From NCBI GenBank assembly GCA_050949525.1, contig JBMNFW010000001.1:527890-591889 (forward strand): 64,000 nucleotides of DNA, in the 5' to 3' direction. Source of the stretch: Patescibacteria group bacterium. Lineage in GTDB: Bacteria; Patescibacteriota; Patescibacteriia; Patescibacteriales; UBA12465. The translations under genes and the position numbers were made by a program. Below the pieces are notes generated by a model. That model was given only the letters and a program-made list of their open reading frames with translations. It was not told where the DNA came from and did no database searches. This document shows, one piece after another, positions 540 through 54,612 of the stretch; the stretch's first letter is position 1, and each line of letters begins with the position of its first letter.

Positions 540-3500
540 CTACTCTTTAATACATCGAATCGAATATCCATTAGGGCTATATTGTTTACCAGCAAGAGCC
601 ATATATTCACCAGCTCCGGTCCAATTGTTTTCATTAGCTAGAACATATCCTAAATCACTAGAGGTATCAGCAGAAAAAATAGTCCGTGTTCCAAGATCAG
701 TAAATCTTCCATCAGATTGTCTAACTCCAACTGGCAAAGCAGTAAATCCAAAATCATTAGTTCCAGTCCAAGGGATTATATCATTTGAAGAAGATTTTAA
801 TTTTTCTGCAATTTTCCAACAAGGAGTTGTGTGATTCCAAAAATCACAAGATGTTTCCCCGGATATTGTCTTAGCTAATTTAATCCAATCATTATCATTA
901 GGTATTTTCCAACCATTAGGACAAAGAGTAACTTGATCCACTGCTGAAACATTATATAGAACACCTAAAATTGGATAAGCCTGAAATGTAAAATTATTAT
1001 ATCCTATTTTATAATTCTTAGCGGCTAATAAATCATTTCCGTCATATCCAAGAACTCCGTAACTAGGTTTATTATCATTTGTTAAATTTGTATAGGTAGC
1101 ATTATCGTGAACAACTGGTAGATATCTTAAATTATCTTGAAACCAACATTGTTCTCCAATTTGAACTGTTTTGTAAATTTCCATATCTCTAGTATCTAGA
1201 ACTTTATCACCACAATCAAAAATTGGATCATCTTTAAAAAATTCAGTAGTTAGAACTATATTATCAGTAACATTATTTTCACCCAATCTAGTACTACTAG
1301 TATTATAATCAGACCACTTAGTAAAAGTATAATCAGAATTAGGAGTAGCAATGATTTCTTGATTATGTGATCCCCCAAAAGGAACTGTTATTACTATCTC
1401 ATCTTTTAGAGCTCCATCATCTAAACTAATCTTTCCACCATCACTACTTTTATAGGTGATAGTTTTAACATTATCTTCTATACAGCGAACTGAACCCTGT
1501 AACATTTTAGGCATTTTATGAAAGGACATTTCATTGATACCCATACAGGCAGCTACCCCTGGATTAAATAAGGCCAGAGTCCAAGCATTACTTGATGATT
1601 CACTGTCAATAGTCTTGGTATAGAAGCCAATTGCATGTCCTTGTAAATCAAAAGCTTCTGAAGTACCGGTCATTCCAGCTCTAAAACCAGCCGGAAGAGC
1701 CGAAAATCCCGAACTATTACTACTAGCATCCCAAGAAGTATCTTTCAAATCTTGGTGATTTTTACCTTTTATTAATTCTTCAAATTCTAGGATAGAAGGA
1801 AGATGCCAACCATCAGGACAAAGACCGCGACTATCCACTACTGCCGCAAAATTGTACAAAGCTCCATAATTATGACTTCGACTATTTTCTTCATCATTAT
1901 CATACCAACTATAGAGACCAGAGCTAGTGCTCATTATTTCATTTAAATCATTAGAGGTAGAGATAGGTGAACCATCATTGTATAAGGTAGTTCTCAGATT
2001 ATCCTGAAACCAACATTCATTATCTATTTCTACTGTTCGATATAATTCTCGATCTCGAGCATCAAAGAAAATATCACCACATACTTCATATTTTTTTACA
2101 AATTCAGCTGTGATAGTTATATTATCATCAATATTATCCAATCTATTACTACTAGTATTAAAATCAGACCATTTAACAAAATGATAGTTATCATTAGGGA
2201 TAGCAGTAATTTCATAAGGAGATATTTCTCCAAATGGAGCTGTAACTACTATTTCATCTTTTAAAATCTCATCACCTAAATGAATCTTTCCACCATCACT
2301 ACTTTTGTAGGTGATGGTTTTAGGACTATCCTGTAAACATCTAACTGGTATTTGAACTAGTTTATGAATCGCCTCTATAAAAAGTTCATCATCAGGTATT
2401 TCTGCACTAACCAAATCTTTAGTTAAAAGCATACCATAATTTCTATCTGAAAAATTATTTAAAGTAGTTCTTGTCCAGAAACTTGTCATAAATCCCTGAG
2501 AATCAAAAATATCCATTCTAATGCCAGTCGGAAGGGCTGAAAAACCAGTAGAATTATTACCATCACTCCAAGAGGTATCTCTGAAATCTTGAGAAATCCG
2601 ACCATCCATTAAATTTAAAAAATCCTGCTTAGACGGTAAATGCCAGCCATCAGGACAAGCATTTACTGCTGCTCCCCAATTATATAAAGCACCATAATTA
2701 TTATTCCGACTATTAGCCTCGTCATTATTATACCAACTGTATAAACCATAATCACTATTAGGATCAAATGTACTAAGAACATCATATACATCATAATCAA
2801 CTGGTGTAATAGGAATAGGTGAACCATCATTGTATAAGGTAGTTCTCAAATTATCTTGAAACCAACATTCATCATCAATTTTAACTGTACGATAGATTTC
2901 ACCATCTCTCTCATCAATGAAGTCATCACCACAGATCCATTCTTTAACTGATGATCCAGAAGAACTAATTGGTAATAATGGTAAAGGTAAAGCACTTTCT
3001 TCAGTTTGATCGTTTCTTGTACTAGTAATAGTGATAGTATTACCATAGATGATTTGATTATCAGAGGTAATGAGATAGGCTCGGAAGAAGGGATAAGTAC
3101 CAGGAACTAGATTTTGAATATTAAGAGTATAACTATTATTAGTATTAACAGTATCATCTATTACTTTATCTTCATAATCATCTAAACTAGGAACTAGTTT
3201 AATATCAGGTAATACAGAATAATCATAGATAATACCTCGTTCTTTAATACTAATATTATCAGGATTGATAATATTAGTAGTAATAGGGATAATATGAGAG
3301 AAATCTTTTAATTCTTCAATCTTCTGAGTTTCTAAGATAATATTATTAATATCATCATTATTATTATCTAATAATGTATCTTCTAAACCTAATTCTCTTA
3401 ATATATCTAGAGCTTCATGAGGACGACCTAAATAGATAGCTTCTAAAGTATCAGGATGGATGTAATAGGCTCGGCCATCTTCTTCGACTGATATTAATAT

Positions 3501-9165: not shown

Positions 9166-9182
9166 ATATTTAAATTAAATAT

Positions 9183-11516
9183 TTATTCCAATTTAATAAC
9201 AAAGTAACGATCATATTCCAAGGGTCCATTAAATTTAAGATCGGTTTTTTCTGGATAAGACCAAATAACTCGCAAAGGACTAGAATTAGAAAAATCATAT
9301 TTAAATTTAGTCTTACTAGCACCAGCTTGTTTCTGCCATAATAGAGAATAATTTAAAGAAGAACTAAAACTCAATCTAAAAGGTAATTGATATTCGATTT
9401 CAATGACCTGACTCTGACCTGGATCTAACATTGTCCAATTGGCAAAAACGGTTTTACCGGATTCTTGATAAATTTTAGTACCACTTTCTAAATCAAGTTC
9501 AGCTCGATTCTCACTACTTTCCAAAATTTCATTCTTTTCTAAAAAATCTTCCGACTTTTTAAAATATTCCTTATCGGGAGCTACAAATCCTTGAGCTCTA
9601 ACTAAAGTTGAGCCTAAAGGAACATAAATGCGCATCCAATTAACATTACGGACACCATAAAATAAATTAGATTCATTGGCGGGATGCTGTCGTTCAATCA
9701 CTAATTTATTCCAAATAGTACCATCAGCTCGAAGCTCACTACTCAAACTATAATTACTCTCCACCACCTTATCAGTTTTAGCACCAGCAATATTAGAATT
9801 AACCACCATTAAATAATCCAAAGGAGCTTCTTTCACTTCCCCTGCCCAAGATCGATATTCAACTTCTTTCTGTAATTCTGGATTATCAAAGTATAATAAA
9901 ATATTTTTTTGATTCAAATTTCTTTCCAACATTTCTAAAGATTTTAATAAAGTTTCCTGATTAAAATTCTTAAAAAACTGATCTAAAACCTTAACCATTA
10001 AATCACCAATAATTCGTTTAGGCTCATTCCTTAACCACTTATCAGGTTCTGATTCTAAACGCTCTAAAACATCAGTCTGAAGCTCCATTTCTTGATAAAG
10101 TTCAGGTTTACCCGTCACCTCTACTATTTCTTGAATCAAATCCCAATAATTATTACTATCAACAATAATGCCGTAGTCAGAACTAATATCAATCGGGCCA
10201 GTTATCTCTAAAAGATCACCTAAAATATCAGGCGTAATAGCAATAACTCCATCCACACTAGAACCACCACTTTTTTCATAAAACCATTTTAGATTTTGCG
10301 CCGACATTCGCCAATCAGGCCACCAATTAGCATCCCAAAAATACCATTGAGGTCTAATTAAATGTAATGGCTTCGGTGACTCCATTAATACCTTTAATGA
10401 TCCGGCAGTATCATAAGATCCTCCAGCCGGTACCTCCACCCGCTCTATTTGCCCCTTCTTTATATCAATCAAAGCATAACTACCAATAAATCCTCCAGTG
10501 GCTCTAATCTCAGCATTATTTTGGAAAATAATTAAATAACGACGATCAGACTCTAAACCAATAAAATCCTTAAGACCTGGAATTAGCTTCAAAAAAGACG
10601 AAAAATTTCTTTCTAAAACTAGAGCTTGATTCTTGATGTTTAAAAACTGCTCCTGATATTCTGATGGAATAGATTTAACCTTAATTTGAGATAAATTCTT
10701 ATTTATCCTTTTAATATCAGATTCTAATTTTTGACTATAATTCTGAAATTCAGAAAAAGCAGCGGGCTCAGAAAAAGATCTAAATAAAGCTTCCACGGCT
10801 AGAGTAAAATTATCACCAGCAATTGATAAATCAAGACCAATTTGACTAATTTTTTTAGACTCAGAAGCTAACTTTAATTTATTATCCTTAGAAAAAGAAG
10901 CTAGAAAAATCAAAAACTCATCAATCTTATTCAGCTCCTCTTGAATCAAAAGAAAGCTTTCTCCAGCGGCTAAGAAATTTTGTTGAGCCGAACTAAGGTC
11001 TAATTGAGAAAAATCTAAGGAAGCTTCTCCTAACTTAGATAAAGCTTGATAAGAATAATTTAAAATATTTTTCTGAGTTTTATGTTCTGATATTAATTTA
11101 TAATAACTAAATAATTTAAAAGGAATAACTATTAAAAAAAGTAATAAAATAAAATAAAAAACTGACCGAGACTTAGAAGACTGATAAGCTTGCTTAATTT
11201 TAAGATTAATATTAGGTAAAGTCTTAAACTTTAAAGGAAGTTTTTGATTTTTAGGTTTAGATTTTTTAAACTTTATCTTTCTAAAAGGCCAAGCAAGTAA
11301 TTCCAATAACTTAAATATTAGCCAAAAAATAGGATAAAAAGTAATCTTCTTAAGACGAGAAAAATTAATCCTAGTTTTTCTGCTTTTAACTTTCGGCTTC
11401 TTAAGCTCCTCTACCTTATCTTTTTCCTTAGCCTTAGGTGGACGTAAATCAACCACAAAACTAGATCGTTGATCATCTCGAGAAACTCCAATTTTATGCT
11501 TTTTTATAACTCCCAT
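9183..11516 (-). CDS. DUF4012 domain-containing membrane protein
   Basis: 777 aa with N-terminal TM segments. NNAEIRATGGFIGSYALIDIKKGQI is the DUF4012 signature block. Confidence 0.75.
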   Translation of the reverse strand: MGVIKKHKIGVSRDDQRSSFVVDLRPPKAKEKDKVEELKKPKVKSRKTRINFSRLKKITFYPIFWLIFKLLELLAWPFRKIKFKKSKPKNQKLPLKFKTLPNINLKIKQAYQSSKSRSVFYFILLLFLIVIPFKLFSYYKLISEHKTQKNILNYSYQALSKLGEASLDFSQLDLSSAQQNFLAAGESFLLIQEELNKIDEFLIFLASFSKDNKLKLASESKKISQIGLDLSIAGDNFTLAVEALFRSFSEPAAFSEFQNYSQKLESDIKRINKNLSQIKVKSIPSEYQEQFLNIKNQALVLERNFSSFLKLIPGLKDFIGLESDRRYLIIFQNNAEIRATGGFIGSYALIDIKKGQIERVEVPAGGSYDTAGSLKVLMESPKPLHLIRPQWYFWDANWWPDWRMSAQNLKWFYEKSGGSSVDGVIAITPDILGDLLEITGPIDISSDYGIIVDSNNYWDLIQEIVEVTGKPELYQEMELQTDVLERLESEPDKWLRNEPKRIIGDLMVKVLDQFFKNFNQETLLKSLEMLERNLNQKNILLYFDNPELQKEVEYRSWAGEVKEAPLDYLMVVNSNIAGAKTDKVVESNYSLSSELRADGTIWNKLVIERQHPANESNLFYGVRNVNWMRIYVPLGSTLVRAQGFVAPDKEYFKKSEDFLEKNEILESSENRAELDLESGTKIYQESGKTVFANWTMLDPGQSQVIEIEYQLPFRLSFSSSLNYSLLWQKQAGASKTKFKYDFSNSSPLRVIWSYPEKTDLKFNGPLEYDRYFVIKLE

Positions 11517-25395: not shown

Positions 25396-25427
25396 AAAAA
25401 ATAAACCTTCAATAGAAGGTTTTTTTA
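25396..25427. terminator. Bidirectional terminator
   Basis: Stem aaaccttc / gaaggttt with loop aata, A-run before and T-run after. Overlaps the stop of the convergent AI-2E gene. Confidence 0.7.
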
Positions 25428-26453
25428 TTTCTCTAACTTATCAGAGAACTCAGTCTCATAAATATGGAAAATAGAAGCTACTAAAGACATAACTAGAGGA
25501 CCAATAATTATCCCCCAAAAAGCAAATAATTTCACACCCCCCAAAATAGATAGAATAACAAATATAGGATTAAGAGCCGGCGGACTCTTGATCAAATATT
25601 TTTTAATAGAATGTTTAGCTAATCCAATGCTTAGTATACACCAAATAAGAATAAGTAATCCCTGCCAAAAATTACCAAAGGCCATTATATATAAAGTAGC
25701 GGGTAAGTAAAAAATTACTGAACCAATATAAGGAATTAAAGACAAGAACGTCATGATAATAAAAACAAAAATAAAAGGCCAACCAACAAAGAAAAATCCG
25801 AAAGCTCCTAATAATCCCTGAACAGTAGCGCTAAAAAAAATGGAGATAAAAGTACTACGACTAATCTGACGAAACTTTTTTATTATATCTCGATCGTAAT
25901 TATTAGGTAAAGGAGAAAGAAGTATTAATCTTCGAGCTAAGGGTTTTCCCTCAATGAAGAAAAAGAACATTGTTAAAATTATAATACCAATTGACAATAA
26001 AGATTTTCCGGCCCCTCTAACAATTACACTAGTACCGCTTAATAACCAATTTTTGATACTATTAGTATTCTCAATTATCGCTTTTTTTAAAACCTTTTCA
26101 ACCGAATCTCCTAATTCTAATTTTTCTAAAAAATCAAATTGAAAAAATTTAGCCTGATTAACTATATCATTTACCTGACCATAAGAACTAACAGCTCTCT
26201 TACCTACAAAAACTAAAAAATGACTTAAGGGAGCCACCACAATTAAAATTAAGAATAAACATAAAACAAAAGAAGAAAAATACTTCTTGTTCCCCAAAAA
26301 TTTAGTTAATTTTTCATGCCAAGGATAAAAAATTGATACTAAGACAGTAGCAATGATAATTTCCGCCCAAAAAGGACGAAATAATAGAAAAATACCACCT
26401 AAACTTAGGATGAGTAGAAAAATTAAAAATGGTCGATGAAATTTTTTAGCCAT
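25425..26453 (-). CDS. AI-2E family transporter (PerM/UPF0118)
   Basis: 342 aa and polytopic. LSLIPYIGSVIFYLPATLY and GGVKLFAFWGIIIGP blocks. Paralog of 34042..35073. Confidence 0.75.
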   Translation of the reverse strand: MAKKFHRPFLIFLLILSLGGIFLLFRPFWAEIIIATVLVSIFYPWHEKLTKFLGNKKYFSSFVLCLFLILIVVAPLSHFLVFVGKRAVSSYGQVNDIVNQAKFFQFDFLEKLELGDSVEKVLKKAIIENTNSIKNWLLSGTSVIVRGAGKSLLSIGIIILTMFFFFIEGKPLARRLILLSPLPNNYDRDIIKKFRQISRSTFISIFFSATVQGLLGAFGFFFVGWPFIFVFIIMTFLSLIPYIGSVIFYLPATLYIMAFGNFWQGLLILIWCILSIGLAKHSIKKYLIKSPPALNPIFVILSILGGVKLFAFWGIIIGPLVMSLVASIFHIYETEFSDKLEK

Positions 26454-29198: not shown

Positions 29199-29345
29199 AT
29201 CATATAATTTCTCATTATTATTCCCCCACCTAAAATATAATAATCCAGTAATAATAACAATAATCGCAATGAGAATGAGTTTCTTTATATTTATTAATTT
29301 CGCTCTTATTTTACCAACTATTTATTGATTTGTAAAATTTTATAT

Positions 29346-29373
29346 ACAAAAAAATAGACAATATTAGTCTATT
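29346..29373 (-). terminator. Terminator after the 1246-aa gene
   Basis: Stem aatagac / gtctatt followed by T7 on the minus strand. A second hairpin cacgg..ccgtg lies at 29380-29398. Confidence 0.55.
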
Positions 29374-29387
29374 TAATCGCACGGGGT
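29371..29387. repeat. Distal copy of a tRNA-Trp 3'-end/flank-derived direct repeat
   Basis: atttaatc-gcacggg-gt here versus atttaatc-aac-gcacggg-at at 33358-33377, which covers the last 8 nt of tRNA-Trp plus its 3' flank. Confidence 0.5.
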
Positions 29388-29438
29388 CGTGGACCGTGTT
29401 AGAACTGAAATTATTATTAAATCAACTTATTTAGTAAA

Positions 29439-32400
29439 TTAATCCACCAAATAAGTCTGTCTAACAATATTATATCCATTAAACTTAGTGTCATCCTCCG
29501 ACTTTAAATCAACAGCCTCTAAGGTTTTTGATAATTCACTTAGATATTTAAAGAGCACCGGCCTATTACTCGCCGAACCGCCTGAATGATCATCAATTAC
29601 AATAGCCGTTTTGCGATTTTCTTTTTCGGCCAAACTTTTTACATAACCTATAACCTTATCATAAAAGTCTTTAACCGATAATGAATTAATTAAATTTTCT
29701 ATAGGATTAAAACCTCTAATAACTAACAACGGCTCTCCATTTTTTGATTCTGTTTCAATCAACATAAAAGCTCCGGCTAATCTCTCATATTTTGTTTCTG
29801 GATTTTGTCTAATAATAACCGAGGTAAAATTAGGGAATTCTTTCAAAATACTACTATACTTTGAAGCCCAGCAAGCATCAGCTATATGTCCAGAAAATTC
29901 AGTTAATACCCCCCTGGTCGGAATTAATTGAATTTTAGAAACATCTTTAGATTGGCCACCGACACCTTGTAATAAAGCCATCTCTTCACTAATAGCTTGG
30001 GCTGAAATTATTTCATTGAACATTCTTTTCGCTTTCTTATCAGTAAAATATTTGGACATAGTCTCTTGATTAGTAATATGATCAATAAAATCAAGAACCC
30101 AAGACATATCACTAATATTTGGCCTATCTAAATCAATATTATCCAAATCGAAATTTAAGCTTTGTTTGTTTCTAGCAAAACTCATTAAAAAAACTGACCG
30201 CCTTAATAATTCATTAAATTTATTATTTCTAGCTAAAATTGAAAAATTATTTTGAAAATCTTTCAAATCTCTTATATTAATAGATTCGAGTAAGTTTATT
30301 TTTTGATTAATCCCCTCCCTGGCCATAGGATTGGGCATATTATTAACTTTTTCTTTTAATTCTTTAATCAATTCTAATCTCTTTTTCTCTATTTCTTCCA
30401 CTAATTTACTAAGAGGAAATTTTTCTTGATACAAGTTTTTAGCGGCTTTAATGGAGTCAACTAACACGGAAAATCTATTTAAAAAATGCTCATTAAATTG
30501 ATGATTCTCTCTGCCGCTAGTATCGGATTTGGCGATTAACAATTCTGAGCTAGGTCTAAAATTACGATTAAGCCCTTTTATTTCACCAGCATTCTTATGA
30601 TTAACATAATTAATAATAATATTTTTAAAACTCTCGTCATCCTTTGTCCCCCACCTAGCCTCTTGCAGTCTGATATATGATTGAAAATATGGCAAATACG
30701 AAGAACTATTATCTCCCTGCAATAAAACTTCGGGGTTAAAATCTTCCGAAATAATTTCTTTTTTAAATTCAGTAAATCTCTCCTGTAATTCTCTCAAGCC
30801 GTCATTACCGCCCTTTTTCAATTTTAATTTTTTTATAATTTCTTTGTCATCACCACTAATACCCTTAATCATATTATAATTATCAGCACTAGCAAAAGCT
30901 CCAAATATTTCCGAGGTTTTAGCGACCAACTTATCTAAAGGGGGATTAAAATATTCATTAATTTTTACAATTTTAGGAAATTCCTGAAGCGAATTTATTA
31001 ATTCATTGCCAAAATCCCGATTAAGATTCTCAAATTTTTCTATATTATTAACTAAAGAGTCAACGGCTTTTGTCTCAACTAACTTCAAGGCTATTTCCTG
31101 ATCTAATTTTTTAAATTTTTCCAAATTATCAATTAATAAATTAATATTACCTGCCTCAATCAATCTATTGGCCAAATCTTTATCAGCCGCGAAACATAAA
31201 TCTAAGTCTTCCTGAGAACGAGATAAAATATTTTTATTTGATAATTTAATAAAAAAATAAGTTAAAGTCTGGTTATCGTCGTTCGTAAATAAATCTATAT
31301 TTTTTATATAAAAAGAATCTTCTGGTTTATTTTTAATACTCTTTATAATTGAAAAGAATGAAACAACCTTTTCACCAATATTTTTTTCAATAAACTTATC
31401 AAGATAATCGCCCGAAATCTGGAAATCTAAATCCGACAAAGAATTATTTTTAATAGCATAAATCAAAAAATCTTCAAAAGCTTCAGTTCTGCCTATTTTT
31501 TCAACAAACTTGTTTTTATTATCAGCTGTTAGGCTGATAAAACCTTTATCCAACAACTTCTTTAAAGAATCAGCACTATTAACTTTCTCTAAAAAATAAT
31601 CGAAAAGACCGCAATCTTCAAAATATTTTAAATCAATACTGCTATCCGCAAATCTATCTCCAAAATTATCAATTAAGCCCTTTAGAGTCTCCGAGCTTGG
31701 TTTAAAACTGTTAAAATTTGAGAAGATAATATATTCTTCGCCGGCATCAATAAATAATTGCAAAACTTTATCAGATAAATGAGAGAAGTTTTTTATATTT
31801 TTTTTGATAGCCCCCGCATAACCATTTTCCCATAATTTAATAATATTTTCTTCTCCAATATTATCTATCCTGTTTATTTTTGCCGCCAAAACATCCATAT
31901 CACCTTCATTTATAATATTTGCAATTAAACTATCCGTGGCAATCCCTTCTTTAAGGTCATATCTTCTTAAAATATAAGAACTTTGCCTATTTTTCTTTAA
32001 TTTTTCAATTAATATTTTTTTATCAAAACCAGCGTCACAATACGCAGTTCTTTCTAAAAGGACTGGGGCATAACCATTTTCAGCCATTTCATAAAATTTT
32101 TCTAAATCTTTAACGTTTGCGTGGTTGCGATTGTTGTAATTATCACCCAATACCAAAGTTATATCAGCAATAAACTTATCTCTAGTATCTCGATATTCTT
32201 GCTTATCTTCTTCTGACAAACTATTATTAATTTCATCATCTGCAACTGTTATTCCATAATAAATAATTAACGCATAGGCCTTTTTTAATTCTGATGAACT
32301 CTTAATATGTTTATCAATAAAATCTAATACTAGGTCTTCTCTTGTATCTAAATTAAAGCACTTTAAAATTTTATCTAAAGCCCAAAGAGGATTAGTTTCA

Positions 32401-33179
32401 GGAAAACGATCAAAATTATGTAAAAATTTATCTATCACTTCATCGGCTCCATTATTAAAAATATCTTTAGCCACTAAATTACTGAACGATTCAAATTTAG
32501 GGAAAATTTGGGAATAATATAGATCAGACTGCTGTTTATTTTCAATCATCCTATCAGCGACAAAAGACGGCAAAGTTTTAAAACTATAATAATCACGATC
32601 TCTATAAAAACTGTCTAAAACCCCAAGTTCATTTAGAACCAACAAAGCATCAGAATCAAGATCTCTTTTTTCAAGATTGTATTTATTAGAACCTTTATTT
32701 CTATTATATTCATTTTTATTGGATAAATAATTTTTAGCCGCCTTATAAAAAGCTTCTTTCTTACTATTATTCACCGCAACATCAAGTATGTCCTCGTGAT
32801 CTACGTCCTGCTCTTTCTTATATTGAAGTTCTGGATTTTTATGAAGTTCTGAGGTTTTAAAACTTAATAATAATAAATGATTATAATAACAACTATCTGC
32901 TGTGGCATCTTCACTTAATAAATCAGCTTCTGCCTTAGCGGTTAAAATATTTTTTAAATCAATTATATCTTTTTCAATAGATTGAATTGGACTAATTCCA
33001 TTATTTGATCGCCAATCCATTAATTCCTGCAACCATTCCTGGATAATATCCTCCGCTTTTTTCTCTTGACCGATTTTTTTAAAATAATGACTAAAAATCT
33101 CCGCTGATAAGCCAAGCTCTTTATCAATGTTTTGCCAATATTCAATTTTATTTTCTTTTTTAATTTGTTCAAATTTCAT
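29439..33179 (-). CDS. Very large orphan protein (1246 aa) with no signal peptide or TM segment
   Basis: Uninterrupted 3741-nt ORF, highly polar and Asn/Lys/Asp/Glu/Ile-rich. No catalytic motif recognised except a C-terminal GHIADACWAS ... VIDDHSGGSASNRP Cys/His pair. Confidence 0.7.
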   Translation of the reverse strand: MKFEQIKKENKIEYWQNIDKELGLSAEIFSHYFKKIGQEKKAEDIIQEWLQELMDWRSNNGISPIQSIEKDIIDLKNILTAKAEADLLSEDATADSCYYNHLLLLSFKTSELHKNPELQYKKEQDVDHEDILDVAVNNSKKEAFYKAAKNYLSNKNEYNRNKGSNKYNLEKRDLDSDALLVLNELGVLDSFYRDRDYYSFKTLPSFVADRMIENKQQSDLYYSQIFPKFESFSNLVAKDIFNNGADEVIDKFLHNFDRFPETNPLWALDKILKCFNLDTREDLVLDFIDKHIKSSSELKKAYALIIYYGITVADDEINNSLSEEDKQEYRDTRDKFIADITLVLGDNYNNRNHANVKDLEKFYEMAENGYAPVLLERTAYCDAGFDKKILIEKLKKNRQSSYILRRYDLKEGIATDSLIANIINEGDMDVLAAKINRIDNIGEENIIKLWENGYAGAIKKNIKNFSHLSDKVLQLFIDAGEEYIIFSNFNSFKPSSETLKGLIDNFGDRFADSSIDLKYFEDCGLFDYFLEKVNSADSLKKLLDKGFISLTADNKNKFVEKIGRTEAFEDFLIYAIKNNSLSDLDFQISGDYLDKFIEKNIGEKVVSFFSIIKSIKNKPEDSFYIKNIDLFTNDDNQTLTYFFIKLSNKNILSRSQEDLDLCFAADKDLANRLIEAGNINLLIDNLEKFKKLDQEIALKLVETKAVDSLVNNIEKFENLNRDFGNELINSLQEFPKIVKINEYFNPPLDKLVAKTSEIFGAFASADNYNMIKGISGDDKEIIKKLKLKKGGNDGLRELQERFTEFKKEIISEDFNPEVLLQGDNSSSYLPYFQSYIRLQEARWGTKDDESFKNIIINYVNHKNAGEIKGLNRNFRPSSELLIAKSDTSGRENHQFNEHFLNRFSVLVDSIKAAKNLYQEKFPLSKLVEEIEKKRLELIKELKEKVNNMPNPMAREGINQKINLLESINIRDLKDFQNNFSILARNNKFNELLRRSVFLMSFARNKQSLNFDLDNIDLDRPNISDMSWVLDFIDHITNQETMSKYFTDKKAKRMFNEIISAQAISEEMALLQGVGGQSKDVSKIQLIPTRGVLTEFSGHIADACWASKYSSILKEFPNFTSVIIRQNPETKYERLAGAFMLIETESKNGEPLLVIRGFNPIENLINSLSVKDFYDKVIGYVKSLAEKENRKTAIVIDDHSGGSASNRPVLFKYLSELSKTLEAVDLKSEDDTKFNGYNIVRQTYLVD

Positions 33180-33303
33180 ATTTTATCCAGTAAAATCTTA
33201 TCTTTATTTTACCAATAATTTAGCCATTTGTAAATCAAAACAAGGGCACTCTAGCTAAAAACCTGCTAATTTGGCTAATTTTCTATTCCCATAAAGGTGT
33301 TAG

Positions 33304-33325
33304 CACCTATCTAGGAATCGAACCC
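33304..33325 (-). other. tRNA 3'-half-like remnant (acceptor 3' strand plus T-arm), not an intact tRNA
   Basis: cacctatctaggaatcgaaccc here versus cacgggatgcaggaatcgaaccc in tRNA-Trp (13-nt identical T-arm core). No matching 5' half can be folded. Confidence 0.45.
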
Positions 33326-33357
33326 TAAAATGCTCGGTTTCTGAGTTACTTTACACG

Positions 33358-33377
33358 ATTTAATCAACGCACGGGAT
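33358..33377. repeat. Proximal copy of the direct repeat (tRNA-Trp 3' end plus flank)
   Basis: See 29371..29387. Confidence 0.5.
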
Positions 33378-33440
33378 GCAGGAATCGAACCCACGTCTTT
33401 TCTTTTGGAGAGAAACATGTTACCACTACACCAATCCCGC
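33370..33440 (-). tRNA. trnW: tRNA-Trp (anticodon CCA)
   Basis: Manual cloverleaf: acceptor GCGGGAU/AUCCCGU (G1-U72), anticodon stem UUUCU/AGAAA, loop CUCCAAA, T-loop UUCGAUU. CCA end not encoded. Confidence 0.85.
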
Positions 33441-33493
33441 TCGGGTTTTCATTATATCTAAAAAATATCTTTTTATCAACAACCCTTAGTTTC

Positions 33494-34041: not shown

Positions 34042-35073
34042 TTATTTTTCTAAAACTTTTTCATACTCTAATTCATAAATATGAAAAACAGTCATCACTA
34101 AAGATAAAATTAAAGGACCCAAAACTAAACCCCAAAAACCAAATAATACTACACCACCTGATAGAGCAAAGATTATAAAGATCGGATTAATTTTATTATG
34201 ACCATGTAAAATCCAAGCTCGTAATAAATTATCAATATTACCAATAACTATAGCTCCCCAAGCAATAATAAAAGCGCCGGTAAAAACTTGCCCTGAAGCT
34301 ATTAAAAACAATCCAATCGGAATATAAATAATCATAGAACCAATATATGGAATTAAAGAAAACATCGCAATAAAAAGTCCTGGATAAAAAGCTGGAACCC
34401 CCACAATAACAAAACCTAAAGCTCCAACTAAACCTTGAACTCCAGCCACTAAAAAAGTTGAAATCATAGAAGCATAACTAGTTTCGCGAAACTTTTTAAA
34501 AATCTCTAAATCATATTTATTTGGTAAAGGTGACCATAGTTTTAATTTTTCTAACATTCTCTCACCATCAATAAAGAAGAAGAACATAGCTAAAAAAATC
34601 AAAGCTAGAGAAAAAAGAAAAGCCGTAGTCTTCTTAATAATAACCGCTGCTCCCTTAGTTAAATATTCACTTAAACCTTTAGTGGTTTTAAGAATAAAGG
34701 TTTTAAAATCAAAATTATCGGAATTAAAAAATCCAATCCGATCCATTAAATCACCTTGATTCTTATCAATCGCATCTAAAAAATTAAGTGTTTCTGAATA
34801 AGCCACTGGAGCCTTTTTACTAAAAAAAACAATTATTCCTGAAACTGGTAATATCACCACTATTAATAACGATAAACACATTAAAAAAGCTGCAATTTTT
34901 TTTCGCCCACCTAAAAAACGACTCAATTTTAAAAAGGGACTATAAAAAACTGAGGTTAAAACAGCAGCAATAATTATTTCCACCAAAAAAGGCCGAAATA
35001 AAAGGATAACGGCCACTGAAGCTACAATAACTAAAAATATTAAAAAATATTTGGCGAAAGCTTTATCTTTCAT
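34042..35073 (-). CDS. AI-2E family transporter (PerM/UPF0118)
   Basis: 343 aa and polytopic. Same block order as 25425..26453 (FSLIPYIGSMIIYIP, GGVVLFGFWGLVLGP). Confidence 0.75.
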   Translation of the reverse strand: MKDKAFAKYFLIFLVIVASVAVILLFRPFLVEIIIAAVLTSVFYSPFLKLSRFLGGRKKIAAFLMCLSLLIVVILPVSGIIVFFSKKAPVAYSETLNFLDAIDKNQGDLMDRIGFFNSDNFDFKTFILKTTKGLSEYLTKGAAVIIKKTTAFLFSLALIFLAMFFFFIDGERMLEKLKLWSPLPNKYDLEIFKKFRETSYASMISTFLVAGVQGLVGALGFVIVGVPAFYPGLFIAMFSLIPYIGSMIIYIPIGLFLIASGQVFTGAFIIAWGAIVIGNIDNLLRAWILHGHNKINPIFIIFALSGGVVLFGFWGLVLGPLILSLVMTVFHIYELEYEKVLEK

Positions 35074-53539: not shown

Positions 53540-54612
53540 AGTCCACGTCATTTTGGAAAAAAATTATTATTAACCAAATAATTCATCGGAGATACTAATT
53601 CAAGGCTCCAATGTGGTCTATCGGTATTATACCAAAGAAGCCAATCAATTAACAAATTATTAAAATCATCTAAATTATCAAAGTATTTTTCACCACTCCA
53701 ATCAATGAATTCTTCTTGAATAGTCCTATTAAACTTCTCAATATGACCCTGTTTGTATGGTCTACCTGGATAATTGAAATAATGCTCAATTTTTCTCTCT
53801 TCTAAGTATTTTTTAAAATAGAGATGGAATTCTAAACCATTATCAGTCTGAACAGCCTTAATATTAAAGGGCATGACTTCTTCTAATTTTTTAAAAAAAT
53901 CTTTAGCATTAGAGCTACTAATTCTGTTATAGGCATAAGCGAAAGCTGTTCGGCTAAAAGTATCAACAGCGGTAATAATATATCTCTTTAATCCATTGTG
54001 AAATCTAACAACAGTATCTATCTCTATTAAATCCCCAGGATTATTTACTTGTAATTCCTTAGGTTTTCTTTTCTTTTTAGTTTTTTTAATTTTTTTAATC
54101 TTACCAAAATGAGATATTTTCTGTCTATGATGATATATATCTTTATCTTTAATAATTCTACCTATCTTTGATTCTGAGTATATTGGTAAATTATTAATTT
54201 CACAAAATTTATCTAAAAATTTTTTAACTTTAGTTTTATCCATATTAGGACAAATCTCTAGTCTTAAACGTCTAATCTCTTTTAATATCAGAGGATGTAT
54301 TTCTCTTTTATTCTTGTTAATCCTAGCTTGGGATTTAGGATTGAGAGCTTCTATCTTGCCACCCCCTTCTCTAAATATTTTTTGCCAATTGTATAGGGTA
54401 GATTTTTTAACCCCAAAGGCATCAGTAGTGGCTTGAAGGCCATATTGCTTCCAAAATTCTAATATTTTGAGTCTTTGTCTAGCTTCTTTGGTAATCATAT
54501 ATTTTTGCTTAATTGCATCATTATATAATGTACCAAATCCGGGACAATTATAGTACTTAAACTTTATCTGCATACATTTTGGGCTTTTTATTTTCCAAAA
54601 TGTATCTGAACT
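53540..54612 (-). mobile_element. IS481-like (IS3/IS481 superfamily) insertion sequence, ~1073 bp
   Basis: Imperfect terminal inverted repeats AGTCCACGT-CATTTTGGAAAA (53540-60) and AGTTCAGATACATTTTGGAAAA (reverse complement of 54591-612). Possible 4-bp TSD TATT (53536-39 and 54613-16). Single DDE transposase ORF. Confidence 0.75.
53548..54573 (-). CDS. DDE (rve/integrase core) transposase, IS481-like
   Basis: 341 aa. N-terminal HTH (KKSTLYNWQKIF), then IEIDTV...ITAVDTFSR...VQTDNGLEF...YNTDRPHWSL. The stop lies inside the left IR. Confidence 0.85.
   Translation of the reverse strand: MQIKFKYYNCPGFGTLYNDAIKQKYMITKEARQRLKILEFWKQYGLQATTDAFGVKKSTLYNWQKIFREGGGKIEALNPKSQARINKNKREIHPLILKEIRRLRLEICPNMDKTKVKKFLDKFCEINNLPIYSESKIGRIIKDKDIYHHRQKISHFGKIKKIKKTKKKRKPKELQVNNPGDLIEIDTVVRFHNGLKRYIITAVDTFSRTAFAYAYNRISSSNAKDFFKKLEEVMPFNIKAVQTDNGLEFHLYFKKYLEERKIEHYFNYPGRPYKQGHIEKFNRTIQEEFIDWSGEKYFDNLDDFNNLLIDWLLWYNTDRPHWSLELVSPMNYLVNNNFFPK

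Follow-up and report, generated by a model that had tools for sequence, protein, structure and literature searches.

In the analyzed window (the whole 64,000-nt stretch of contig JBMNFW010000001.1, a low-GC segment of a Patescibacteria genome with a GC content of about 31%), the gene encoding a giant protein of 1246 amino acids (aa) belongs to a unit of approximately 4 kb adjacent to tRNA-Trp. The best explanation, to which we assign a probability of about 0.6, is that this unit is an integrase-less cassette, mobilized in trans and placed after the 3' end of tRNA-Trp, ahead of the native terminator of the tRNA gene. The comparison with relatives suggests that tRNA-Trp is a variable insertion hotspot in these tiny-genome bacteria, the giant gene marking the site. 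The original prediction, made from the letters of the window alone, had described the giant gene as a foreign unit at the tRNA-Trp 3' end with a short direct repeat at both boundaries, and this description is borne out by the edges of homology and by the identity at four-fold sites given below. The window was inspected with Rfam, ARAGORN, open reading frame (ORF) calling, exact string search and dinucleotide shuffles, and was aligned to contigs carrying homologues of the giant gene; contigs and loci of relatives compared with the window are denoted by L-numbers (L001, L004, L158, etc.).

The unit extends from 33375 to 29379 on the minus strand of the window and consists of the heptamer CCCGTGC, a leader of about 190 nt, the giant ORF (29439..33179, minus strand; the sole long ORF between the repeats according to ORF calling), and an end element of 45 nt closing in CCCGTGC. 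tRNA-Trp with the CCA anticodon (33370..33440, minus strand; Rfam tRNA, 62.3 bits, E=3.6e-12; 33369-33440 according to ARAGORN) is complete, with the discriminator G in position 33370 and CCA not encoded. The proximal core, identified as the exact string CCCGTGC (33369..33375, minus strand), comprises the acceptor 3' strand, the discriminator G and one flank base. The cassette begins one base past the discriminator, and the last bases of the tRNA form the left attachment point. The distal core CCCGTGC (29379..29385, minus strand) is the right boundary of the cassette, as homology to the relatives ends there.

The giant protein is not an orphan, as had been assumed, since it has 22 full-length homologues with 59-99% identity in Patescibacteria; the homologues of the window genes all come from Patescibacteria metagenome-assembled genomes. 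Aligned with L004, the window shows 91% nucleotide identity over 4079 nt (33440-29379), while the flanking genes are about 68% identical. The same difference is seen in the proteins, where the identity is 91% for the giant gene product versus 72% for rubrerythrin, 57% for the AI-2E family protein, 56% for the tetratricopeptide repeat (TPR) protein and 53% for Fpg (51-72% for the flanks in general). At four-fold sites, the identity is 85% for the giant gene (n=435) versus 59-67% for four neighbours (the genes of Fpg, the AI-2E family protein, the TPR protein and rubrerythrin), and hence slow protein evolution is ruled out as an explanation. The unit reached these genomes much later than they diverged from each other, and it has been horizontally exchanged among divergent Patescibacteria. 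The islet had been suggested to be decayed, which is not supported, as the cassette is much more recent than the sequence around it and moves among divergent genomes.

On the right side of the unit, homology of the window to L004, L006 and L011 ends at position 29379, which is the first base of gcacggg, and homology to L007 ends at position 29370 (i.e., exactly in three of the four contigs, and within 9 nt in the remaining one). Six unrelated flanks are found directly past CCCGTGC (in the window, L004, L006/L083, L007, L011 and L064), each opening with a different terminator-like hairpin. Contigs L064 and L083 were the only relevant ones among the matches listed in a scan of metagenomes with the 16-mer GTCCACGAYCCCGTGC, most of these matches being GC-rich chance ones. 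On the left side, host-specific tRNA bases (CTGCAT, CTACAT, CCTCAT, CTACCG) stand directly 5' of CCCGTGC in five genomes, and the leader past the core is common to them. In L012, and in L001, where the gene is situated at a non-tRNA locus, homology to the window begins at 33375. As the bases on one side and the flanks on the other side are specific to the host, any crossover would fall inside the core. Contigs L007 and L011-L018 break within the giant gene or at its edge, which is expected if near-identical copies occupy several co-occurring genomes.

Both unoccupied and alternatively occupied sites are present in relatives. Contigs L158 and L159, which represent two strains encoding an identical rubrerythrin protein and having 97-98% identical flanks, differ in that L158 has approximately 6 kb extra between the tRNA CCCGTGC and the same flank; this insert closes in an end element, L159 is without the insert, and in both contigs the next gene is followed by a decayed end element. 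Two alleles of the locus are observed within one species, the giant cassette in L156/L006 and a methyltransferase/DUF2326 island in L155, with the common flank being 98% identical. In L161, which represents a third species and has the same gene order upstream, tRNA-Trp is followed by a terminator and then by the core gene purL, with no cassette. Neither the shorter site of L159 nor the unoccupied site of L161 has an end element next to the tRNA.

The end element of the window (tgatttaataataatttcagttctaacacggtccacgacCCCGTGC; 29379..29424, minus strand; about 45 nt, 46 nt by coordinates; nhmmer E=1.3e-13) recurs at the ends of cassettes that carry unrelated genes downstream of tRNA-Trp in relatives. 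All close relatives keep the 45 nt before the distal core (tttcagttctaacacRgtccacgaCCCCGTGC), and related copies found with nhmmer close the giant cassette in L004, L006, L007, L011 and L064. Further nhmmer matches follow the Bro-N/PDC-S13 gene in L004 (12841-12884), a 484-aa gene in L012 (1735-1777), and a DUF4238 gene that comes after a restriction-modification cluster in L013 (7752-7796), and one copy stands at the end of the insert of about 6 kb with wHTH-PRTase genes in L158 (13793-13830). The Bro-N gene of L004 matches the PADLOC candidate defence family PDC-S13 (E=3e-116), and the defence genes among the cassettes of relatives include PDC-S13, restriction-modification, MORC-like and PRTase genes. 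In L012, whose giant gene is 99% identical to that of the window, the end element of another cassette, and not the tRNA, stands to the left of the leader. Junctions of the end element and the leader in L012 and L013 are tandem rather than circular, and no circular junction or excision product was seen. The end-element or leader patterns had no match in three viral-contig scans.

The first 48 nt or so of the leader (gttgattaaatcgtgtaaagtaactcagaaaccgagcattttagggtt; 33321..33368, minus strand) form a second common motif, which was detected with an nhmmer profile directly past a core-like GTGC junction. This left-end motif opens not only the giant-gene cassettes, but also a methyltransferase cassette (L155, L004) and the wHTH-PRTase cassette (L158, position 12380), the methyltransferase cassettes of L155 and L004 being 87% identical to each other. 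The extra piece resembling the 3' half of the tRNA, noticed in the original prediction, is real (GGGTTCGATTCCTAGATAGGTGC; 33296..33325, minus strand). It has a 13-mer in common with the T-arm of tRNA-Trp, its acceptor-like part forms a small hairpin (GGTGCTAACACC), and it ends in GGTGC, resembling the core. The remnant persists as a part of the leader in L006 and L012-L016, and L004 and L001 have a degraded version. The remnant and the left-end motif together have the appearance of a relic left by an older junction, consistent with serial events at the site.

Some neighbouring elements of relatives resemble parts of the cassettes. Some relatives with a genomic GC content of about 31% have, between tRNA-Trp and the giant cassette, a GC-rich element of approximately 190 nt that is absent from the window (L014 7608-7797, L017 2272-2459, L001 1033-1220, and a variant in L007 3555-3775). 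This element follows a terminator hairpin and closes in a copy of the tRNA 3' end (ATTCCTACCGCCCGTGC). The RNAalifold prediction has 50 pairs, six of them with compensatory changes among three sequences, and no Rfam family matches the element. It may be a structured RNA or a non-coding cassette. In L010, a homologue of the giant gene (92% identity) lacks the standard leader, and its neighbours on the two sides are a gene of the rolling-circle Rep type and one for a reverse transcriptase (2036-2935, minus strand, and 9169-10221, plus strand). The 3' end of this homologue is followed by a different end element, ccgcctttactaagcGGTGC followed by GTTGAT, which is also found inside the L158 island.

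Downstream of the giant gene, the minus strand reads as follows: the stop codon (29439), a 3' untranslated region of 53 nt, CCCGTGC (29385-29379), the octamer GATTAAAT (29378-29371), and a hairpin with a T-run (approximately 29372-29348). The host flank, as read from the sequence, thus comprises GATTAAAT and the hairpin with the T-run (29348..29378, minus strand). The distal repeat had been placed just beyond the terminator of the giant gene; on the coding strand it precedes the hairpin and T-run. This hairpin is probably the original terminator of tRNA-Trp, to which it presumably belonged. Another hairpin, CACGG...CCGTG at the distal site, was considered as a structural element and dropped, since the relatives have CACAG without a compensating change.

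A number of observations weigh against the cassette explanation. A part of them concerns the repeats in the window itself. All three strings noticed in the original prediction are present by exact search (atttaatcaacgcacgggat at 33358-33377, atttaatcgcacggggt at 29371-29387, and cacctatctaggaatcgaaccc at 33304-33325), but exact identity with the tRNA is limited to 7 nt, which is much below the usual attachment (att) repeats. The tRNA contributes only six of these nucleotides (CCCGTG), the remainder being the 3' flank. Upstream of the distal core, a degenerate likeness to the T-loop and acceptor is seen (11 of the 16 aligned positions). The local alignment of the tRNA 3' end and flank with the 100 nt after the stop codon has score 21; 61 of 5000 dinucleotide shuffles and 15 of 2556 other 100-nt windows score at least as high. 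Hence, the match is only modestly significant in the window alone (p approximately 0.01, with no correction for the freedom with which the strings were chosen). The repeat is considered real because of the comparison with relatives, not because of this statistic.

Of the repeat as originally drawn, the heptamer CCCGTGC stands, and the ATTTAATC half is specific to the lineage; the meaningful repeat consists of CCCGTGC and the conserved element of about 45 nt upstream of its distal copy. Both strands of the 64 kb considered, the string gcacggg is present at the two repeat sites and nowhere else, compared to 11 occurrences of atttaatc, and the 13-mer aggaatcgaaccc is found in the window only at the tRNA T-arm and at position 33313. 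Frequent occurrence of the motif elsewhere had been named as a result that would speak against an island; no further copy of the core or of the end element was found in the window by string search and nhmmer. A search of the window against Rfam yielded the tRNA alone, and neither the 33304-33325 remnant nor the distal element was assigned to tRNA or to another family. The composition of the cassette is not distinctive, with a GC content of 29.4% versus 31.4% (12th percentile of 4-kb windows), and trinucleotide composition does not single it out.

Other observations of this kind come from the relatives. More distant homologues of the giant gene (63-77% identity; L001, L002, L003) occupy other loci with no tRNA and with partial or no repeats, an outcome that had been foreseen as unfavourable for an island; the edges in closer relatives fall at the core. 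An empty site had been predicted for related genomes. For the element family, there are the unoccupied site of L161 and the shorter site of L159, but no empty site was found in the species of the window, the cassette being present in each of the ten contigs displayed out of 23 read. The cassette is fixed in this species. The base run past the proximal core is GTTGAT in the window versus GTGGAC or GCGGAC in relatives, and therefore the window copy may no longer be excisable. The right junction of the L158/L159 pair is unclean, with a 65-nt palindromic hairpin between the distal core and the common flank, and the right-hand rejoining point of L155 and L006 has no core; some of the exchange, therefore, may have proceeded by homologous recombination. 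The 65-nt hairpin (gtgccacgt...acgtggcac; L158 13831-13895) could be a terminator that came from the donor with the insert, or else a short independent insertion.

The remaining difficulty is the recombinase, which was not found in cis by a Pfam search of 24 ORFs of the window and of the island ORFs in L004, L006, L010, L011, L155 and L158. The only ORF of the cassette has no recombinase domain, a crude regular-expression screen for tyrosine and serine recombinase motifs found none in the window and locus ORFs of at least 120 aa, and no recombinase was found in the roughly ten arrays examined. A parent element with an integrase was found neither at any locus examined nor in viral contigs. The absence of an integrase in cis, noted in the original prediction, is thus confirmed for the window ORFs by Pfam and motif screens, and mobilization in trans is therefore a sensible reading. 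Of the features of a tRNA-targeted island, an intact tRNA at one boundary and a distal direct repeat of the tRNA 3' end are present, while an integrase inside the island is lacking. The unit has the structure of a cis-mobilizable element (CIME), in which attL and attR are kept and genes for integration and transfer are absent. The only mobile-element enzyme seen in the window is an rve-type DDE transposase with N-terminal helix-turn-helix domains (Pfam rve, rve_3, HTH_23; 53548-54573, minus strand), 20 kb away. Xer recombination was considered by comparing the E. coli dif site by eye and was rejected, since only GGTGCG/CGTGCG is common and the spacing does not fit.

The main rival explanation is that tRNA-Trp adjoins a hypervariable locus kept by homologous recombination (e.g., following natural transformation) with no dedicated recombinase, where tRNA-Trp with the leader and the end element with the common flank serve as homology arms for allele swaps. 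The lack of a recombinase in all ORFs screened agrees with this, as do the alleles of L155 and L156/L006, having about 43 nt in common past the core and rejoining the flank at a coreless point, and the extra donor-like terminator hairpin beyond the core in L158. Still, allele swapping leaves unexplained why the same end element abuts six unrelated flanks exactly past CCCGTGC, why this element is absent beside the tRNA in L159 and L161, and why a core matching the tRNA end is found at the ends of unrelated cassettes; we consider it unlikely as an account of the locus. At the other extreme, the repeats could be coincidental, and the giant gene could be an ordinary, vertically inherited neighbour of the tRNA. 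The in-window p of about 0.01, the unremarkable composition and the fixation of the gene in the species are what one would see in this case, but the synonymous-site identity exceeding that of the neighbours (85% versus 59-67%), the precise stop of homology at the repeat in several genomes, the same element closing unrelated cassettes, and the unoccupied and alternatively occupied sites in relatives make coincidence highly improbable.

The arrangement of cassettes also resembles an integron, in which the tRNA-Trp 3' end would act as attI, the 45-nt end element as attC, and a distant chromosomal integrase would insert cassettes beside the tRNA, pushing older ones distally. In particular, a conserved element resembling a recombination site terminates each cassette at its 3' end irrespective of cargo (the giant gene, Bro-N/PDC-S13, the 484-aa gene, DUF4238, wHTH-PRTase), cassettes form arrays (two in L004, two and a decayed one in L158, tandem junctions in L012 and L013), and the comparison of L158 with L159 shows the newest insertion adjoining the tRNA, ahead of the older decayed cassette. 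On the other hand, no IntI-like gene or tyrosine recombinase is found near any array, the cassettes have their own promoter-like sites and leaders, and only a handful of arrays has been seen. Folding of the end-element/leader junctions as single-stranded DNA is no better than that of shuffled sequences (z = -0.96, -0.17 and +0.66 for three junctions), and attC-like folding of the junctions was thus rejected. An integron-like system appears even less probable than homologous recombination.

In the preferred explanation, that of a cassette mobilized in trans, the cassette would form a circle, with the end element joined to the leader through CCCGTGC, and this circle would be inserted at the tRNA end by site-specific recombination, with the crossover inside the 7-bp core. 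Tyrosine recombinases typically have a crossover region of this length. The gene of the recombinase would lie outside the cassette, at another place in the genome or on a different element. The cassette would enter between the tRNA and its own terminator, as suggested by the terminator hairpin that follows the last core in each genome, and follows the tRNA in L161. Joined cassette ends in relatives, as read from the alignment, have the form GTCCACG-ACCCCGTG-CGTGGAC, that is, a 7-bp inverted repeat around an 8-bp spacer; this form is seen in L016 and L013, and in the window it is imperfect, with CGTTGAT as the right arm. The putative recombination site is GTCCACGACCCCGTGC-GTGGAC. The predicted circular or tandem junction would join GGTCCACGACCCCGTGC to GTTGATTAAATCGTG, and the predicted empty site would join GATTCCTGCATCCCGTGC to GATTAAATAGACTAATATTG.

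Going beyond this locus, we tentatively suggest, at less than even odds, that Patescibacteria may possess a trans-acting cassette system, in which a recombinase encoded elsewhere would insert and shuffle small self-promoted cassettes at the tRNA-Trp 3' end using the 7-bp core, the end element of about 45 nt and a left-end motif of about 25 nt, the cargo including defence genes and the giant GNAT-like gene. If true, this system would be a functional analogue of the integron based on a tRNA gene, and its host phylum is one from which very few mobile elements have been described.

The cargo itself gave few leads. The 1246-aa protein has no usable match in sequence searches of Pfam, NCBIfam, PADLOC and PDB. 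AlphaFold2 models of moderate quality, with predicted local distance difference test (pLDDT) values of 62.8 (residues 640-1246) and 67.2 (residues 1040-1246), predict a mostly helical fold with a C-terminal alpha/beta domain of about 170 aa. Nearly all top Foldseek matches of these models in PDB are GNAT-fold acetyltransferases, including the tRNA-acetylating toxins AtaT, KacT, TacT and GmvT, with weak scores (E from 3e-3 to 3e-2, template modelling scores 0.35-0.55). The C-terminal domain of the cargo may thus be GNAT-like, which is weakly supported and is to be taken as a lead only.

The promoter-like site of the giant gene (33206..33234, minus strand), identified by a consensus scan, consists of TTTACA, 17 nt and TG-n-TAAAAT, matching the consensus in 10 of 12 positions with an extended -10 TG; its sequence is kept in relatives, and it is defined by the consensus match only. 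A closely similar promoter-like site (29308-29336, minus strand) precedes the downstream gene of 126 aa, the two sites having the form TTTACAAAT..TAAAT..TTGGTAAAATAA. This may reflect a local promoter consensus, or the 126-aa gene may also have come as a cassette. Two paralogous transporters of the AI-2E family with about 40% protein identity flank the tRNA-Trp region (34042-35073 and 25425-26453, both on the minus strand). In L004, L155, L158 and L161, a Desulfoferrodoxin_N protein of 39-46 aa is encoded between rubrerythrin and tRNA-Trp; the corresponding position of the window (33441-33493) has only 53 nt, and the small gene is missing.

Patescibacteria have tiny genomes with few recognized mobile elements, and the ways in which they acquire and exchange accessory genes are poorly understood. 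The locus described here offers a concrete, sequence-defined route of such exchange, in which cassettes of a single gene or a few genes are exchanged at the tRNA-Trp hotspot across genomes whose identity is otherwise about 68%. With the end motifs, the cassette pool and the missing recombinase can be searched for. Moreover, a 7-nt repeat, weak when taken alone, can mark a real recombination boundary. A literature search for Patescibacteria, genomic island, tRNA and integrase found no relevant paper by title or abstract.

Among known systems, the locus can be compared to the tandem islands at ssrA of Dehalococcoides, which have 20-bp repeats and comprise 16 islands with a serine-recombinase integration module, while some units lack integration genes and were suggested by the authors to be possible cis-mobilizable elements (PMC3146451). 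As in these islands, several units lie downstream of one small RNA gene with a short direct repeat of the gene 3' end in a strain-variable region, and a further conserved motif that does not align with the RNA gene stands just upstream of each repeat (PMC3146451). Here, however, only 7 nt are repeated exactly, tRNA-Trp serves as the target, the units can be as small as single genes, and a recombinase was not found in about ten arrays. CIMEs, which are defined as decayed integrative and conjugative elements (ICEs) or integrative and mobilizable elements (IMEs) and are formed by decay and accretion of integrative elements, likewise have att-like repeats at the tRNA 3' end, tandem units, and no integrase or transfer genes (PMC5704250). 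Unlike CIMEs, the cassettes show no trace of a parent element, are young and intact, occur in divergent genomes, and have end motifs in common whatever the cargo.

Tycheposon islands of Prochlorococcus are similar in that a streamlined genome with few classical mobile elements has integration at tRNA genes, successive insertions pushing older units inward, partial tRNA copies between units, and defence cargo (bioRxiv 10.1101/2020.12.28.424599). Tycheposons carry a tyrosine recombinase and their repeats are recognizable partial tRNAs (bioRxiv 10.1101/2020.12.28.424599), whereas here no recombinase is seen and the repeat consists of 7 exact nucleotides and a degenerate T-loop-like stretch. With integron cassettes, the units share small size, often a single gene, unrelated cargo, a conserved end element, and an array growing from a fixed site with the newest unit adjoining it; they differ by having no intI, no attC-like fold, their own promoter-like sites, and the end of a tRNA gene as the fixed site. 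Compared to all these systems, what appears to be new, judging from the sequences compared, is the combination of a very short exact repeat, arrays in which no integrase was found, and left and right end motifs common to unrelated cargo, in a phylum from which such elements have not been described.

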